Of a stretch of DNA of 24,445 nucleotides, positions 6,001-12,000 are shown piece by piece; position 1 is the stretch's first letter, and every line of letters begins with the position of its first letter. The position numbers were made by a program. The DNA is from Candidatus Hydrogenedentota bacterium (GTDB taxonomy: Bacteria > Hydrogenedentota > Hydrogenedentia > Hydrogenedentales > SLHB01), in assembly GCA_034408725.1 (NCBI GenBank), contig JAWXCN010000251.1, positions 1 through 24,445 of the forward strand. The letters are read 5' to 3'.

Positions 6001-9000
6001 GAGCCGTTCCAGTATTGCCCGGCGGACATCACCTACAACAGTTTCAATCCTGACGCGCAACGCTTTGCCGAGGACTTCGCAAACGCGTTGTCGGAATCGG
6101 GGTGGAACATTACGATCGGTCCTTCATCGAAAGCAACGGACGGCATCAAAATCGTCACAAAATCCAGCGCGTTGCATGCCGGCGAAATCAGTGCGGTCGT
6201 GAAATGGCTGCGAAGCGCAGGCCTCGACGCTAAAGTACGCGTCAGACAGGAACTGGAAACCGAGGCGATCCAAATCGTATTCGGATCGATTCCCGAGGCC
6301 ATGCGGAAACTTTAGGTGATTTTGGATTCTGGATTGGGGGGCGCGGAATAGCATCCGTGTCTGTCCGTTTTATTGACTTGTCGTGGCATTTCACCGCTCA
6401 TACGGAATCCGCCGTTGGTGATGTTCATTGCGCACGAATTGCGCGGCAACGCAAAGCTACGCAATGGGCGCTTCGCGCCAAGCCTGGTCGAGGCGTTGTA
6501 TCCAGAACTCGCGATAAGCTGCTTTACGTATAAACTGATTAAATGTAAAGTACGCTTATAATCCGTCTTAAAAAGCAAAAATAAGTAAATAATAATTGAA
6601 ATAATCATATTTATTGTTGCGTGTTCGACATAAATATGAGATTATGTTTTTATGCGTACCACGTTCGACCTTCCCGATGACCTCCACCGTTTGCTCAAAG
6701 CTCGGGCTGTGTTAAGCGGCGTATCCACATGGCAAATCTGCAGCAGTTTATAGAAGAAGGTTTGCGTGGCATGACCGAGAAACCGTTCCAACAATCCAAT
6801 CGGCGGGAGCCGCCCCCTGTGATTATCCCGCCGCGTGGCGTGCCGATTCCCGCTACTCCGCCAGCGGAACGCCGGCGGTTGGAAGAATCGGAGGACGAGG
6901 CGAAGCATGCCCGATCTTCTTGACAGTGAGCGCCCGGTTTCCATGCCGGGCGAGACTTGAAGCGGTAAAATCCTGCTCATAATCACGCCCGCCATGGAAG
7001 GCGGGGACGCTACAAATTGAGATATTGGGACGTCTGCGACGGGCGTGTTAGGCGGCGATCCTTACGGATAGTAATCGTGGTTCCGGGAGGCGTCGGATGG
7101 AGTGCCCTTAATGAACCCGGCGAACTCCATCAAGTCGGAGTACATGCTATCGTGGGAGTTGGACCCGGACGACTGCGAAGCATCAAGGGAAATCAATTCA
7201 CATTGCACCCTGCTGCCGTCGGGCAGATCGATTGGGTCGTCCAGCACTACAGCACCGTTTTGGATTCGGCCTCGGTATGTCATCGCGTGAATCCTCTAGT
7301 TCTTGCAGCAATATTATACAAGATGGACGTGCAAATGGACTAGACCACCATCGCCGGTGATGGGATACCCCATTTCCCGCACGTTTTCCCGGTTGACGTG
7401 GTAACCGATGCAGCCGGATTTTAGGAATGCCTGACATGCCAACGCTACAGGAAATCCAGTCACAAGTAACCGCGCTTTCGCAGGAAGATCTGGCTGCGTT
7501 CCGCGCGTGGTTTGACGAATTCGAGGCGGACGCATGGAACCGGCGAATCGAAGCCGATGCCAGGGCCGGTAAACTGGATGGTCCCATCGAACGGGCAAAG
7601 CGCGATGATGCGGCCGGGAAATCGACTCCGCTTTGAGAAGATTCTGGGTGACCGTGGCTCCTTCTGCGACGATTTGAGTAGTCAGTCCCGGAATTGCACT
7701 CGCGCGCGTCCAATCTGCAGTCCATCCGTGATCCTCAGAACTCACTGTAATCTTGTAAGTGCAGAGAATTAGCATTACAATCCCATCTAGGTAGGGGAGT
7801 CGAATGCTATGAGTACAAATCGAAAGCACCAAGTATTCGTCAGTTCCACCTTTTCTGACCTAGACAAAGAACGTTTGGGCGTGCTTGATGTTATTGCCAA
7901 AATGGGATGCATCGCAGCAGGCATGGAACTGTTTCCAGCCTCTCACAATACCGCATGGCGAGAAATTAAGCGAACAATAGATGAGTCGGATTACTATCTT
8001 CTGATTTTGGGCTCCCGATATGGCTCGCCCGGTCCTGACGGCATAAGTTATACTGAAATGGAATACCGCTATGCTTTAGAATTAGAAATACCAATCGTAG
8101 CGTTTGTACGCAAGTTAGACAATGTAGAGGAGTTGATAAACGATCCGCTTGAAATTCAAAAATTCATCCAGTTTCGCTCTTTAGTGAGCAAGCGACTATT
8201 CAAGCACTGGGTGACAACCCATGATCTGCAAATTGCTGTCTCAACAAGCCTACATCAATTGATATCTGATTATCCATCTCAAGGATGGCTCCGCGCCAAC
8301 CCAAAACCAATATCAACACCGGAAACGACATTGGAATCCAGCGAAACGCAAGCTGTGTCGCTTCGGGCACTAATAGCGTCGACATCTTGGATCGTCGGTG
8401 CCGTTAATTTTGATGAAGATCTGCATTTTTCTAGCTTCTACTTGCGGGCCTCAGCAAAGAAGAACCTAACGAAAGAAATCAAAGAACTTGGGTACAGTGC
8501 AATTATCGCAATTTACGAAGACTTCAATGAAAGGTACTATCTGCCCGAAAGCGAATGTGGAGATGTTGCCAAGGCCCTAGTAGAGAAGATGTTGATGGAG
8601 CCAGATTGGTTTCAGAAAGCGATACTGGATCAAATAAGTCTAAGGCTGCAAGCTTTAACCACTGTATTTAAGGATACCGCCCAAGCTCGTCCCTTTGAAA
8701 ACTTAACAGACAAGCAAATACTTGCGCTATACAAAAAACACAACGATGTGCATTCGTCGCTGTACGAAGTAGCTCGGATACCTGAAACACTTGATAGAGG
8801 TGTCGGATATTTTACGAAATACCTTAATGATTACCCGCGAGCACGTCTTGGGCCTTCTGCGTCGCCGTCCGCTGTTGGAGAAGTGTTCAGTGCCCTAACG
8901 CAGCCGGAAGAAAAGAGCAAAAAACTTGAAGAGCTTGAAGAGTTACTCTCCCTCTCGGTGCAAATAAGGCATGCTGCGAAAGACGGCATCTTTCAAGGCT

Positions 9001-12000
9001 CCTCGAAGCGCATGCTCTTGGAGTTAGATCCGGAGATGCTTGGAAAGATTATGAGACATCGGGACAGATGGTCTTTCTGGGGCTATCATGGTTACGGTAC
9101 CCGAGCAACTTTTGATATTAATCATTATTTAAAGCAAATTGGAGAAGCGTTAACAAAAGGTGCAATAAGCGGAATAGATCCAGTTCGTTATAGCGATATG
9201 CTCAAAAAGCACGAACTCCGCAGGATAGAACTTTTTGGCAAGCTCGATATAGATTCTCGACACCAAATGCTTTTTCGATTTTATTCCAGAATTGGCAACG
9301 CGAAACTCTCTAGGCGATTCGTTCAGCTGCGAAATTTCTATTATCTCGATTTGCTGATGATTGAAATTTCTCGACGTTTGCATCTTCGTGAAGGACAAGT
9401 AAGGTCGCTCCTTCCGGAGGAAGTAGAGAATTTGCTTCGTTCGAAAAAACGACCAGCGTTTCTGACTGCATCTCAACGAGCTCGCACAGAAAAGGCAGTT
9501 TTCATCATTTCCTCGAAACAAGAAGCGGTTCTTTCCGGTAAGGACCTGAGTTGGGTGAAGATAGAGATAAAAAAATATAGCCGCCCGGAATCCTCACGAG
9601 GACGGCAACTTACTGGAAATGTATTGTGTCAGGGAATTGCCCAGGGAAGAGCAGTGGTGATAAACCGTCGGGAGGACGCGATTGCATCCGGATTTAAAAA
9701 AGGCGATATTCTCGTCAGTCAAGCGGCTGATCCGGAACTAGCCGAAGTTATGGCTATGGCTTCTGCCGTTCTTGTCGAAACCGGTGGTGTTACATGTCAC
9801 GCCGCGATCATATGTCGTGAGTTGGGTAAGCCTGCGTTGTCTAACATCCATTCTCTGCTTGAGGAAATAAATACAGACGATTATGTCGTCGTGGACGCTT
9901 ACAATGCCACAGTGGAGATTCGTAGGCCGGAGGCACTCAAATATTGTAAGTGGCCCAAGGACTTGTCAGATAGTGATTCCGCAGAATTCGGGAAGAAGGC
10001 AACGACTTTGGCGCAGCTGTCTAGGAGCGGAATGAACGTTCCGCGCTTTTTTGCCATTTCTCTTAATCGCATTGAATTTACTAAAGACCCTCAGGATGCC
10101 ATTGGCCCGGAGAAAAATGATCTTATCGAAGAATTAAAAATAATGGCGGAATCCCTTGACGGACCCATGTTTATTATTCGAAGTAGTTTTGCAGATGAAG
10201 ATGCTGATTCATTAATAGCCGCGGGGCAGTACCCAAGTATTTCAAACATTGACAAGGAGGACTTTGCCTCCACAATTTTAGGAATGGTAGAACGAGCATC
10301 AGGTTTGCCAAAGGAAAGACTTGGCTCCCTGATTGTTCAGGACATGGTTTTGGCAGACTATTCAGGGGTATGCATTACAGAAGACGCTGTCACTGCATTT
10401 GCAGATAAAATCACTATCGAAATAGTACCTGGCAGTAACGAAATCCTGACGAATGGAAATGTTGTGCCAAAAACATATTCGTACAATAAGAATATGCATG
10501 TTGTAGACGAAGTAAATTCTGCGTCGTCTTGGGGGCGCTTAGTCGAGGGGGAAAAACTCCGGGAGATTGCCGAAGCGTGTATTAAGATTGAGACAATTTG
10601 CGGCCAGCCTCAGGATATCGAATGGACGCTAAAGGAGGACACGCTTTGGATCTTGCAATCACGGAGTATTCGTCGAGATAGACGCCGTGTGCTGGCACGT
10701 GCAGACTCCCTGTCTCATATCGAGCATGGGCTTCGGGATATTTCCATAATTTGCCGAGCATACTATGTACCGCCAAATGTTAAATTGCATCTACTTAGAG
10801 TCGCCGCAATTGGGGATTTTATTTGTGCTAAATGGAACGGCCCCAGAATAAATAGGGCCGTTATAATTAAAGCTCTGCTTTTGCATGACATTGGTAATAT
10901 AGTCAAGGCGGATTATCGCAGGTATCCAGATCTGTTTCCTGAAGAAACGCGAAATCTGAAGTATTGGATTGCCGTACAGCAACGCATCCGCGATAGATTT
11001 GGAGAAACGGACTTGAAAGCTACATTGAATATAGCTCGAGATATCGGAGTGGATAATGAAGTCTTAGAATTGATTCAGAACAAACAGTTTTTGCTGAATC
11101 AGGATACGTTAACTTCCGATTCTTGGGAACGTAAGATCGCGGCGTATGCGGATCAACGAGTCGGGCCACACGGAGTTCTCGGTCTTAATGCCCGACTCGC
11201 TGAGGCGAGGCGACGATACCATGGTGTTGATAACGCGAGCGTCAACTCTTCAAGCTTCGATCAGTTGGCGAGTTGCGCTATCGAAATCGAAAACAAACTT
11301 CAGAAAAATATGGCAGTGTTACTGCGCACCATCGATGACGCGTGTATAGCTATAATTATGAATGAAATTAGACGCGAGCCACTCTTTTGATCTGCAGTGT
11401 GTGCAATTTTAAACTTGTACACGTATTTATACAAAGTTTTGGAATGTTGGGCCAATTTATGTTACAAACCAATAAAAGCTGACAGGGGCAATCCGGCGGA
11501 GCTGATGGTGGAGGCAGCGGCTGAGTAAACACGAGAGAGAGTCTGTCGCAAGTTTCTTTGGGATTGTCGAGGTTCCCGGTAAGGCTGTTTCATGTCCTGT
11601 GCTGCGGTTGGATTGTGGTAATGCAAAGCGGAAACTTCAAGAAGGCGTGCACTCACGTGAACAACTCGGGAGTGAACATTCGATTAAAGCGCGTACCACT
11701 TGGGAGCTCGGCGGAAGTCCAAGCAAAAACGCACTTTCCTACCCCATAACTCTTTTCAACTTAGATTTGCCCCGCATCCCCGCCATATGCTATTCTCCCG
11801 CGTTCGCAAATTCACAGGGGTCCGTCCTCATTACACGGACAGGGTGTCCGCCTTTGCCAAAACGGCTTGGTGGATAGTGCCGTGGGACCCCAAGGTTAAA
11901 CCCAAAGGGAGAGAAGAATCATGCCTGTTGTCACCATGAGGCAACTGCTGGAGGCTGGAATCCATTTCGGCCACCAGACCCGCCGCTGGAACCCGAAGAT

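Follow-up and report, generated by a model that had tools for sequence, protein, structure and literature searches.

A dikinase and HD protein with an exchangeable N-terminal effector slot as a candidate modular conflict system in Candidatus Hydrogenedentota

Introduction

The stretch of DNA analysed here (the window, 24,445 nucleotides of a Candidatus Hydrogenedentota contig) contains a gene for a 1193-aa protein, P0001, in which a DUF4062/NIR domain is followed by a large middle domain, a phosphohistidine swivel, an ATP-grasp and an HD domain, and it raises the question of what such a combination does in the cell. The survey's finding was that P0001 is a candidate single-protein immune system with an unnamed domain of 400 aa, a weak HD match and relatives that exchange the N-terminal domain around a constant core. 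The present analysis suggests, at a probability that we place slightly above an even chance, that P0001 is a modular conflict system, most likely of the anti-phage abortive-infection kind, with a dikinase and HD core and an NADase effector.

Results

Gene, domains and genomic setting

The frame of P0001 is unbroken, with only 6 in-frame codons between its start and the nearest stop upstream, and the ORF and its Pfam matches agree with the intact NIR, swivel, ATP-grasp and HD protein described by the survey (Table 1). The DUF4062 match (PF13271, residues 8-89, E 2.8e-27, 95.2 bits vs a cut-off of 24.7; 98.8 bits in the genome scan) covers all 82 positions of the model, and the swivel and the ATP-grasp were found as PEP-utilizers (629-699, E 3.9e-19) and PPDK_N (780-960, E 1.5e-19), respectively. 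As had been reported, no PADLOC-DB v2.0.0 family matched P0001 at E<=1 and the NCBIfam scores were far under cut-off, the best being 122 bits vs 598 for a PEP-synthase model; the models of rifampin phosphotransferase (RPH) gave 76.2 bits vs 999 (equivalog) and 47.2 vs 1700. The promoter-like site upstream is weak evidence, with 8 such sites seen vs 6.5 expected from shuffles.

Table 1. Features of the P0001 gene in window coordinates.
Feature	Position	Strand	Details
Whole ORF, P0001	7809..11390	+	1193 aa and stop codon; single copy in the genome (G000)
NIR/DUF4062 TIR-like domain	7809..8303	+	residues 1 to ~165; Pfam match 7830-8075
Candidate catalytic Glu E85	8061-8063 (codon)	+	motif SYTEMEY; predicted from motif position
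Pro/Ser/Thr/Glu-rich linker	8295..8351	+	residues ~163-181; read from sequence
Substrate-binding domain, RIF-binding-domain homologue	8352..9692	+	residues 182-628 (447 aa); AF2 model and structural match
Phosphohistidine swivel domain	9693..9905	+	residues 629-699; H664 codon 9798-9800
ATP-grasp (PPDK_N-type) nucleotide-binding domain	9951..10703	+	residues ~715-965; Pfam match 10146-10688
HD phosphohydrolase domain	10716..11387	+	residues 970-1193; metal ligands H994, H1026, D1027, D1115
Promoter-like TTGTAA-17-TACAAT	7753..7781	+	28 nt 5' of the start codon; weak

The low GC content noted earlier was borne out, the ORF having 45.1% vs 57.0% for the genome; of 8495 genome windows of that length, a single one is as GC-poor. 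The GC3 of the ORF was 0.429 vs 0.69-0.75 in four housekeeping neighbours. Among 133 genomes of the order, the full-length match was confined to G000, the 16 other matches being partial. The claimed absence from all four congeners stands for three, and the fourth (G096) has a DUF4062-only match; the region from ~5900 to ~11760 is missing from all four. The DNA immediately 5' of the gene contains antitoxin remnants and a repeat element, and the neighbouring accessory genes are degraded. Recent horizontal acquisition is thus supported by GC, uniqueness in the order, the congener gap and the antitoxin remnants. The junctions of P0001 are real, being bridged by independent metagenome contigs: one (X1, which may be from the source sample) covers 7459-11995 with 0 differences, and two others (X4, X5) hold exact pieces. 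The flanks consist of rpsB-tsf-pyrH-frr and further housekeeping genes, and none of 8 nearby window ORFs matched PADLOC, which agrees with the lack of defence genes noted in the survey; both observations count against an immune role.

A permuted RPH-type dikinase core

The middle domain, formerly described as unnamed and now delimited at 447 aa, gave a confident AF2 model (pLDDT 93.4, pTM 0.91), and RPH-Lm was its only match with Z>=8 among 48,161 PDB chains, with Z of 11.4-12.3 against 5.3 and 5.8 for the next matches. The alignments joined model residues 10-416 with RPH-Lm chain 326-753 (Z 12.3, 332 aligned, rmsd 6.4) and residues 1-440 with 321-801 (Z 11.6, 362 aligned, rmsd 5.8), and Foldseek returned RPH-Lm with a probability of 1.00 and E 6e-3, the acceptor-domain identity to RPH being 8-11%. 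The RIF-binding domain of RPH is given as residues 327-754 in the RPH paper (PMC4844700). Modelling therefore indicates that the middle domain is a homologue of the rifampin phosphotransferase RIF-binding domain, and since this is the substrate-binding domain of RPH, the core is an RPH-type "X, water dikinase" in circular permutation.

The order in P0001 is acceptor domain (matched by the substrate-domain HMM from residue 186), swivel and ATP-grasp, which is not the canonical one; a relative in canonical order, as the survey had reported, is P0182, with PPDK_N at 15-319, the middle domain at 333-736 and the swivel at 741-811. The swivel carries its putative phospho-accepting histidine, H664, in the motif GGVTCHAAI, and H664, K730, R791, E797, D936, E938, Q950 and R952 are invariant in 42 sequences, confirming the earlier observation. 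The conserved middle-domain residues include N200, D202, E203, D204, H206, K499, R502, R503 and R559, and the middle-domain family comprises 468 representatives at E<=1e-3, close to the 460 of the survey. The best PDB sequence matches were PEP synthase structures (8a8e, E 9e-73 with the family profile). With a constant core and intact catalytic residues, dikinase activity is predicted from sequence.

HD and NIR domains

The HD match had been called weak, and its Pfam score is near the cut-off (residues 994-1097, E 1.4e-5, 25.7 bits vs 22), but H994, H1026-D1027 and D1115 do not vary among 34 sequences and the model has a pLDDT of 94.7. All of the best 50 structural matches of the model belong to the HD/PDEase superfamily (Z 7.3-9.4), with no subfamily prominent, and a phmmer search of this domain against the PDB gave no match. 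The assignment as an HD domain is solid from motif, model and family conservation, contrary to the earlier judgement.

Experiments described in 2026 bioRxiv preprints have shown DUF4062/NIR to act as an NADase effector in several defence systems. All 3 members with an NIR domain (P0001, P0003, P0005) retain the motif SYTEMEY, and their NIR domains share 53-56% identity. A glutamate of this motif, E85, is a candidate equivalent of the catalytic glutamate of the preprint proteins, on the basis of its motif position as in NDT/TIR families. The catalytic residues in those proteins are E108 of PsAvs2, E98 of Vulcan and E103 of Vesta, according to the preprints. The effector of P0001 is its NIR/DUF4062 domain, a predicted NADase.

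Module exchange and split operons

The survey's 41 close homologues were recovered (P0002-P0042, E<=2.6e-114, among 49 matches), and 211 genome-contig relatives were found, of which 80 were kept and 12-14 extend into the middle domain, in line with the 13 loci previously counted. Scanning of 37 fused relatives identified NIR (3), PRTase-CE (5), PNP (6), Metallophos (1) and BTAD/TPR (1) as N-terminal modules, together with a long N-terminus (11) and short unknown ones (5). The long N-terminus gave an HD match of 22.4 bits in L003 and matched Atlas HD and HD-CE clusters at 0.91-0.95, and the N-terminus of the nearest relative, P0002 (56% core identity), is unrelated, with 30% identity over an alignment of 30 residues. 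The exchange around a constant core proposed earlier is confirmed, the N-terminal slot being swapped among effector-type domains, namely NIR, PNP, PRTase-CE, metallophosphatase and N-terminal HD.

The Cap15-like gene previously seen near relatives proved to be more than a neighbour, as two loci (L098, L101) hold a tight three-gene operon of an HD protein, a Cap15-like 2TM protein and a short-form, effector-less dikinase. Against the HD profile of the family, the HD proteins gave E 3e-67 and 2e-75, with 38% identity to the HD domain of P0001. The 2TM proteins have a Cap15_CD_rec domain (E 2e-19 and 1e-18) and two hydrophobic segments, and matched the PADLOC CBASS '2TM' effector at E 2.9e-34 and 4.8e-33. 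The two operons share only 41% and 48% mutual identity and belong to different tree subclades. This operon is a split version of the NIR-dikinase-HD fusion, with the 2TM protein in the effector position. The description as a single-protein system thus holds for P0001 and fails for these three-gene forms and for the clostridial relatives, which carry a conserved TPR partner gene.

Other results on the relatives are less favourable to an immune role. Of the six short-form loci whose upstream DNA can be seen, four (L007, L010, L097, L100) have no family HD or Cap15-like gene within 10 kb, and the same queries found no match anywhere in the genomes of L007 and L010; a separate ligand-receptor domain is absent from the fused forms. 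The PADLOC scan of long and short relatives matched only the PNP part of L001. In favour of an immune role, genes of a mobile or defence flavour occur near some relatives (TnpB, IS66, IS200, ParD, YhcG (PDC-S02), Uma2 (PDC-S03), integrase and methylase). In the IMG/VR viral contigs no protein of the family that has the middle domain was found, a neutral result.

Discussion

The invariant engine of this family consists of the permuted dikinase and a coupled HD phosphohydrolase, the variable part probably being a cell-killing effector. By analogy with the RPH mechanism (PMC4844700), the ATP-grasp would put the beta-phosphate of ATP on H664 with release of AMP and Pi, and the swivel would move it to an acceptor bound in the 447-aa domain. 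The many invariant polar residues in this domain suggest that the acceptor is a single defined small molecule and not the variable proteins of phages. The HD domain might cleave the phospho-product or a related nucleotide, so that the dikinase/HD pair would set the level of a phosphorylated metabolite. Infection could tip this balance or provide the acceptor, and the ligand- or phospho-state of the core could then free the N-terminal NIR, which would hydrolyse NAD+ and arrest the infected cell. In the split relatives, the membrane 2TM protein with its Cap15-type ligand-receptor domain would take the place of the NADase. The immune role, which we infer from these features, keeps the support of the constant core, the effector exchange and the split 2TM operon; the window without defence neighbours, the short-form loci without HD or effector genes and the exporter-linked distant members weigh against it.

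Base-ribose (N-ribosyl) bonds are the common target of NIR, PNP and PRTase-CE. This shared chemistry, the conservation of every enzymatic residue, the adjoining housekeeping genes and the presence of biosynthetic ligases in the RPH family (PigC and RedH match partially) would suit a non-immune, multifunctional enzyme of nucleotide or cofactor salvage or biosynthesis, in which an N-glycosidase-type domain yields a ribosyl intermediate that the dikinase phosphorylates and the HD domain trims. We regard this as unlikely, because the effector slot of the split operons is filled by a non-enzymatic 2TM Cap15-type membrane effector, because metallophosphatase, HD-type, BTAD/TPR and unrelated N-termini are unfit for a single pathway, and because the distribution is rare, patchy and HGT-like, with the gene absent from congeners and an extreme outlier in GC. 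An RPH-kind resistance enzyme that inactivates a small toxic molecule, an antibiotic or other xenobiotic, by phosphorylation, with NIR and HD as accessories, appears less probable still. The RPH-like core structure favours it, as does the large unexplored dikinase group of unknown substrates described in the RPH paper (PMC4844700), and xenobiotic modification suits the exporter genes that follow some distant members (MatE after the 'domain+swivel' genes L009 and L011, MFS after the short form L097). Yet these members (E 1e-61 to 1e-73 vs the family HMM) lie outside the fused clade, the NCBIfam RPH scores and the substrate-domain identity to RPH are low, and it is not evident why such an enzyme should require exchangeable NADase, PNP or 2TM modules or a phosphohydrolase that works against it.

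The antitoxin remnants and repeat element immediately upstream, the transposases, integrases and TA genes near relatives and the GC anomaly as a mark of recent transfer bring up a selfish toxin or addiction module carried by a mobile element, or a conflict function of some other non-viral kind, with an NADase toxin regulated by dikinase and HD and without a specific tie to phages. We give this a similarly small chance, as the analysis found neither a cognate antitoxin or immunity gene nor a secretion signal or element borders, and the effector set is the same as that of abortive-infection systems. It is very improbable that P0001 is a recently transferred gene, silent or decaying in its host and currently functionless: its foreign codon composition (GC3 0.43 vs ~0.72) and the degraded accessory genes beside it would agree with this, but the 1193-codon frame is intact with all catalytic motifs kept, and the identical sequence occurs in contigs from several metagenome runs. 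An anti-phage conflict system thus remains our preferred reading, and the NIR-permuted dikinase-HD architecture, of which the literature found by searching holds no description, appears to represent a type of bacterial defence system that has not been described before.

Compared with known systems, P0001 resembles RPH-Lm (PDB 5HV1/5HV2/5FBT; PMC4844700) in the ATP-grasp, the swivel phospho-His and the large helical acceptor-binding domain, but differs from its order of ATP-grasp, acceptor domain and swivel, adds NIR and HD, and misses the NCBIfam RPH cut-offs more than tenfold; its substrate is almost certainly other than rifampin. PEP synthase and pyruvate phosphate dikinase share the ATP-grasp and swivel, whereas P0001 lacks their PEP/pyruvate TIM-barrel. 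NIR-Avs2, Vulcan, Vesta, Swarozyc and Evangelion, described in three 2026 bioRxiv preprints, likewise have an N-terminal DUF4062 with a Glu motif and a larger regulatory part behind it, but their partners are STAND NTPases, repeats, pAgo, alkaline phosphatase or helical stalks. The survey had stated that these preprints do not mention the architecture of P0001, and in their main texts the terms swivel, PEP, phosphohistidine, ATP-grasp, HD domain and dikinase do not occur. Unlike the Avs/STAND NLR-like NIR proteins, P0001 has no match to an NTPase family (Pfam, E<=1). In Detocs, too, a nucleotide-degrading effector such as PNP acts downstream of phospho-histidine chemistry, but Detocs uses a two-component histidine kinase and receiver in place of a PEP-utilising swivel and ATP-grasp, and is not known to involve an HD. 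No CD-NTase/SMODS match (Pfam) was found among the 8 and 10 ORFs of L098 and L101 or in the window, and a dikinase and an HD take the place of the CBASS cyclase; the split operons have in common with CBASS a full-length '2TM' effector match with a Cap15 cyclic-dinucleotide receptor domain, and the logic of an enzyme joined to a swappable effector is the same.

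The gene and its genomic setting

The gene for P0001, the 1193-aa fusion protein, is a single unbroken open reading frame of 1193 codons, with 6 in-frame codons 5' of its start and then a stop codon; its domains and the coordinates of the other features are compiled in the table. No match to the protein was obtained at E ≤ 1 in PADLOC v2 (2023), and NCBIfam 20 gave only partial matches, to the PEP synthase, PigC/RedH and rifampin phosphotransferase (RPH) models, all well short of the cut-offs. The low GC content noted in the survey's finding (45% against 57%) was reproduced, with 45.1% in the gene and 57.0% in the genome, and the GC3 was 0.43, compared with 0.69-0.75 in rpsB, lysS, prfB and the sigma-54 regulator gene. 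A GC content as low as this occurred in 1 of 8495 genome windows of equal length, and the gene is foreign by composition. An assembly chimera was ruled out by contigs from three metagenome runs: one from X1, possibly the source sample, equals 7459-11995 with 0 differences, and those from X4 and X5 contain exact pieces spanning the start of the gene and its 3' flank. With respect to a deletion polymorphism, no metagenome contig joining the flanks across the gene was found.

The gene is followed by the conserved block rpsB-tsf-pyrH-frr-uppS-cdsA-prfB-lysS, and on its 5' side lie genes for a FadL-like protein, a sigma-54 response regulator, CtaA, a radical-SAM/BATS enzyme and a GDSL lipase, the last being separated from it by about 1.9 kb of accessory debris, made up of an antitoxin remnant, a 115-bp element and small ORFs that match no family. 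Four congeners align to the rpsB side at 74-83% identity, with their upstream block on other contigs, and nothing in them matches window positions ~5900-11760 except a 115-bp repeat. This element, of which at least 7 copies were found in congener G093 and 5 in congener G094 at 73-80% identity, is probably a REP/MITE-like dispersed repeat. Its first 37 nt (6927-6963) resemble Rfam CRISPR-DR9, and a CRISPR reading was rejected because the score (28.3 bits) is under the cut-off of 45, there is no repeat array and the segment is part of the dispersed repeat. After the antitoxin remnant comes a 17-codon ORF terminating within the repeat, and the two (6652-6960) look like a degraded toxin-antitoxin pair. 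Of the small ORFs, those at 7065-7283 and 7436-7633 were antitoxin-like by eye. As element borders around the gene, no tRNA, integrase or flanking direct repeats were found, and none of 8 nearby ORFs matched PADLOC, in keeping with the earlier statement that defence genes are lacking nearby. The DUF1559 family is typical of Planctomycetota, and the DUF1559/N-terminal methylation-motif protein encoded at 21660-22508 therefore fits the planctomycete metagenome-assembled genomes among those carrying P0001 relatives.

Features of the window, of P0001 and of the loci (L) that bear its relatives
Feature	Position	Strand	Evidence or remark
P0001 gene	window 7809-11390	+	1193 codons
DUF4062	P0001 residues 8-89		Pfam E 2.8e-27, 95.2 bits (cut-off 24.7)
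PEP-utilizers (swivel)	P0001 residues 629-699		Pfam E 3.9e-19
PPDK_N (ATP-grasp)	P0001 residues 780-960		Pfam E 1.5e-19
HD	P0001 residues 994-1097		Pfam E 1.4e-5, 25.7 bits (cut-off 22)
Small ORF	window 5878-6312	+	0 Pfam, 0 NCBIfam families
Ribbon-helix-helix antitoxin remnant, frameshifted	window 6652-6920		FitA-like_RHH E 4.5e-4, under cut-off
Hairpin-rich element, 115 bp, two GC-rich hairpins	window 6929-7044		multiple copies in two congeners
Small ORF	window 7065-7283	-	0 Pfam, 0 NCBIfam families
Small ORF	window 7436-7633	+	0 Pfam, 0 NCBIfam families
TPR_12/TPR_10 gene	L003:12988-13902		directly 3' of Clostridial fused form
TPR_12/TPR_10 gene	L099:4898-5800		directly 3' of Clostridial fused form
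TPR_12/TPR_10 gene	L104:8455-9357		directly 3' of Clostridial fused form
Two ORFs near short form	L102:2485-3711, 7071-7847	-, -
Acceptor domain + swivel gene, then MatE exporter gene	L009:9872-12866		frames overlap or abut
Acceptor domain + swivel gene, then MatE exporter gene	L011:9908-12875		frames overlap or abut
Short-form dikinase gene, then MFS transporter gene	L097:8648-12367

A permuted dikinase core and an intact HD domain

A search of 1.84 billion cluster representatives with the domain at residues 182-628, left unnamed by the survey, found 468 of them at E ≤ 1e-3 (460 had been stated). By Pfam, these comprised fused proteins in the permuted order, permuted forms of ~770-830 aa that lack an effector (short forms), proteins of ~500-530 aa with the domain and a swivel only, and tandem repeats of that pair; the one representative reported in canonical RPH order is P0182 (ATP-grasp 15-319, domain 333-736, swivel 741-811). 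Structure models were generated for this domain and for residues 970-1193. The AlphaFold2 model of 182-628, built on 80 sequences, had a pLDDT of 93.4 and a pTM of 0.91, and its top Foldseek matches were four entries of RPH-Lm, the rifampin phosphotransferase of known structure (probability 1.00, E 6e-3 to 2.6e-2). VIA-align gave a Z of 12.3 against RPH-Lm chain 326-753 (332 aligned, rmsd 6.4) and of 11.6 against chain 321-801 (362 aligned, rmsd 5.8), the next entries reaching 5.3, and when 48,161 chains were scanned without preselection, RPH-Lm was the sole match with Z ≥ 8, rank 2 being 5.8. In the RPH paper, the rifampin-binding domain is given as residues 327-754 and described as having no structural homologue at that time (PMC4844700). 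The domain is identified here as its homologue. Furthermore, P0101, a representative of the domain, provides a sequence bridge, its residues 190-512 aligning to PigC 543-881. From the model match and this bridge, the P0001 core is, as modelled, a circularly permuted RPH-type dikinase, with the order acceptor-binding domain, swivel, ATP-grasp, whereas that of RPH is ATP-grasp, acceptor-binding domain, swivel. The identity of 182-628 to RPH is only 8-11%, and the homology does not imply that the substrate is rifampin.

The domain also occurs in arrays. By hmmsearch, at least 8 ORFs in a row at L119:2-11834 encode paralogues that consist of an RPH-type acceptor domain plus swivel, and L079, L073, L074 and L022 carry 3-4 such genes in tandem each; in P0121, P0141, P0177 and P0147, 2-4 such units lie within one protein. 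The genomes with tandem arrays belong to Patescibacteria and DPANN-type archaea.

The invariance of H664 and of the ATP-grasp residues, as claimed previously, holds in the family alignment of 42 sequences, for H664 (putatively phospho-accepting, in GGVTCHAAI) and for K730, R791, E797, D936, E938, Q950 and R952. In the acceptor domain, N200, D202, E203, D204, H206, H311, R323, E326, D329, R330, H427, K499, R502, R503 and R559 were near-invariant in the same alignment, and K499, R502, R559 and G609 were the sole invariant columns in the wider alignment of 80 sequences. Such polar conservation would suit one defined small acceptor over variable protein ligands.

The HD match, earlier regarded as weak, proved sounder than that: the metal ligands H994, H1026-D1027 (in LLLHDIGNIVKA) and D1115 (in AYADQRV) are kept by every HD-bearing member, and the model of residues 970-1193 had a pLDDT of 94.7. 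With this model, the best Foldseek match was the PgpH HD domain (E 0.03, probability 0.99), followed by YpgQ, SP1746 and HD-GYP, and all of the top 50 VIA matches belonged to the HD/PDEase superfamily (Z 7.3-9.4), including YqeK, the GppA C-terminal domain, small alarmone hydrolases and cGAMP phosphodiesterase; no subfamily stood out among these 50. When the PDB was searched with the sequence of the HD domain by itself, no match at E ≤ 10 was obtained. Judging from the conserved ligands and the model, the domain is a divergent yet intact metal-dependent phosphohydrolase.

Distribution and exchange of the N-terminal module

A full-length match to P0001 was found in its own genome alone among the 133 genomes of the order, the count given by the survey; the remaining 16 matches are DUF4062-only or ATP-grasp/swivel-only. 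The genome scan found one DUF4062 gene in this genome. Two ORFs of 346 and 331 aa, neither with a dikinase core, were observed in genomes of the same taxonomic family (L082, G090:C23; L083, G101:C89). Over their first 160 residues they share 46% and 43% identity with the P0001 NIR module; thus, related NIR modules circulate in this lineage. P0001 has 41 close homologues, and the hosts on genome records, which are scattered over several phyla, are Bacillota/Clostridia, Planctomycetota, Thermodesulfobacteriota-type Syntrophaceae, Caulobacteraceae, Acidobacteriota, Nitrospira and a Thermoplasmata archaeon. Among viral contigs, no locus with the acceptor-binding domain and two swivel-only matches were found.

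A Pfam scan of the 41 close homologues and further representatives showed the same core throughout, preceded by each of the four modules named earlier: NIR (P0001, P0003, P0005), PRTase-CE (P0007, P0009, P0011, P0012, P0017), PNP_UDP_1 (P0015, P0018, P0050, P0070, P0072, P0074) and Metallophos (P0021). BTAD/TPR was found in P0052, an N-terminus of ~470-515 aa in 11 proteins and a short unrecognised one in 5, and P0006 has a C-terminal AAA extension. The long N-terminus gave generic HD matches of 22.4, 21.7 and 14.5 bits at L003, L099 and L008, and in the Atlas it lay near 'HD domain' and HD-CE clusters (0.91-0.95; HD-CE 0.91), with no match to PF24391 (HD-CE) in the Pfam scans; its HD-like nature is a lead only. 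By eye and without a family match, the N-termini of P0008, P0013 and P0014 (100-205 aa) share a motif recalling nucleotide-cyclase-type domains, and that of P0057 shows a G-G...D-x-D pattern resembling that of nucleotidyltransferase-fold toxins; all four may represent further effector types.

In a FastTree phylogeny of 69 cores over 771 columns, a quick method with local supports only and composition warnings, a short-form clade (24 rows) stood apart from a fused clade (42 rows). Within the latter, the NIR, PRTase-CE and long forms were each coherent, PNP forms appeared in at least 2 places and a second short-form group was nested. In the NIR clade (P0001, P0003, P0005), the NIR domains are 53-56% and the cores 44-49% identical, and this similar divergence indicates that they co-diverged. 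In the nearest relative, P0002, the core is 56% identical to that of P0001 and the N-terminus has no similarity to NIR nor any usable Atlas match; comparison of the two sequences indicates a recent replacement.

Split operons and other loci of relatives

The Cap15-like 2TM effector reported near some relatives was found to be an operon partner. Two metagenome contigs, L098 and L101, each carry three adjacent co-oriented genes, which abut at 5520 and 6200 in L098 and are separated by 26 and 8 nt in L101. They encode, in order, an HD protein (217 or 239 aa), a protein (227 or 209 aa) bearing the Cap15 cyclic-dinucleotide-receptor domain PF18153 (E 2e-19 and 1e-18), and a short-form dikinase (767 or 772 aa). 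Two hydrophobic segments lie at the N-terminus of the second protein, which aligns along its entire length with the CBASS '2TM' effectors of PADLOC (E 2.9e-34 and 4.8e-33). Against the HD profile specific to the family, the free-standing HD proteins score E 3e-67 and 2e-75, and the one from L098 shares 38% identity with the HD of P0001 along its whole extent (E 4e-51). Because the dikinases are 41% and the 2TM proteins 48% identical and the two fall in different subclades, the operons are old and distinct. L002 is a third copy, cut by the contig end, of the L098 type (the 2TM gene shows 96% identity across its final 26 codons) and hence not independent. No CD-NTase-type family was detected among the neighbours scanned at L098 and L101, and family HD and Cap15-like genes were not found, with the queries used, in the genomes of L005, L007, L010 and L012.

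By their gene order, these operons tie the HD, effector and dikinase into one predicted functional unit, in which a membrane-disrupting, non-enzymatic CBASS-type effector would sit where the fusions carry NIR, PNP or PRTase. Nothing else argues as strongly for the N-terminal modules being exchangeable effectors and not pathway steps.

Neighbourhoods were read at 17 close family loci. Among the fused forms, a TnpB/Cas12f-like gene lies near the PNP form at L001, IS66 Orf2-like genes at L003 and L004, IS200 at L004 and L104, YhcG (PDC-S02), ParD and a transposase at L008, and Uma2 (PDC-S03) at L005; among the short forms, an integrase and an HTH gene lie at L100, and an integrase and a type II methylase at L010. 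L008 and L010 thus account for the PDC-S02 and the integrase plus methylase mentioned previously. The 1475-1498-aa Clostridial forms at L003, L099 and L104 have a second, N-terminal HD-like region and are each followed by a gene for a 301-305-aa TPR protein, likely a partner or sensor; upstream at L003 lie Metallophos, ThyX and a dCTP-deaminase-like gene. Near the short form at L102, a 409-aa protein has a nucleoside 2-deoxyribosyltransferase domain with a weak SLOG-like match, and a second ORF has a weak ribosome-inactivating-protein match (E 4.6e-4).

Proposed mechanism and its standing

The basis observed for a mechanism consists of the domain parts and the conserved catalytic residues. According to the RPH paper, ATP is bound by the ATP-grasp, its beta-phosphate is attacked by the swivel histidine and its gamma-phosphate is removed by hydrolysis; after moving to the acceptor domain, the swivel phosphorylates the substrate bound there, with the net reaction ATP + X + H2O -> AMP + Pi + X-P (PMC4844700). 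According to two preprints, DUF4062/NIR domains catalyse NAD+ hydrolysis and bring about abortive infection in several systems, dependent on a conserved Glu, of which E85 of P0001 is the putative counterpart by motif position. In the mechanism considered most likely, the dikinase and the HD would act oppositely on the same small phospho-metabolite, infection would shift their balance or supply the acceptor, and the resulting state would switch the effector on, in cis in the fusions and via the Cap15-type receptor domain in the split systems. Bifunctional synthetase/hydrolase enzymes offer an analogy for such a pair.

We lean slightly towards the immune reading as a whole, a modular abortive-infection system. 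Against it, the neighbours at L007 and L097 are metabolic or transporter genes, a gene for a distant acceptor domain plus swivel precedes a MatE exporter gene at L009 and L011, a short-form dikinase gene precedes an MFS transporter gene at L097, and the window has none of the mobile or defence neighbours seen at the loci of relatives. The MatE and MFS linkage fits small-molecule modification coupled to export.

The literature searched held no description of the NIR-permuted dikinase-HD architecture. As the survey had stated of three DUF4062 preprints, their main texts and legends, figures and supplements aside, contain none of the terms swivel, PEP, phosphohistidine, ATP-grasp, HD domain and dikinase; an unnamed depiction in a figure is possible, as the legend of Fig. 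S1E mentions 'auxiliary enzymatic domains' (10.64898/2026.05.01.722283). The parts are known, and neither their combination nor the type of core turned up in PADLOC, NCBIfam or this literature; judged against PADLOC v2, NCBIfam 20 and the same literature, what is new is a defence-type module built from a permuted PEP-utilising dikinase and an HD. If the immune reading is true, defence based on PEP-utilising (swivel-histidine dikinase) chemistry would have its first family here, with a new enzymatic logic for bacterial immunity in which ATP-driven metabolite phosphorylation is opposed by a dedicated HD, and the newly recognised NIR NADase module would gain a fourth type of partner. RPH-like enzymes include a large 'orphan' group whose substrates are described as unknown in the RPH paper (PMC4844700), and the family could provide this group with its first non-antibiotic role. 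For experiments, the fused and split forms offer ready-made versions with one gene and with three, in which the point mutations to make are clear.

A more specific version, which we consider rather unlikely, takes the permuted dikinase as a signal synthase that would phosphorylate a small, probably nucleotide-like metabolite to a second messenger, to be read by the Cap15-type receptor in split systems and by fused effectors such as NIR in cis, with the HD as a built-in off-switch. The dikinase/phosphohydrolase pair would then occupy the slot that is held by the nucleotide cyclases in CBASS, Pycsar and Thoeris.
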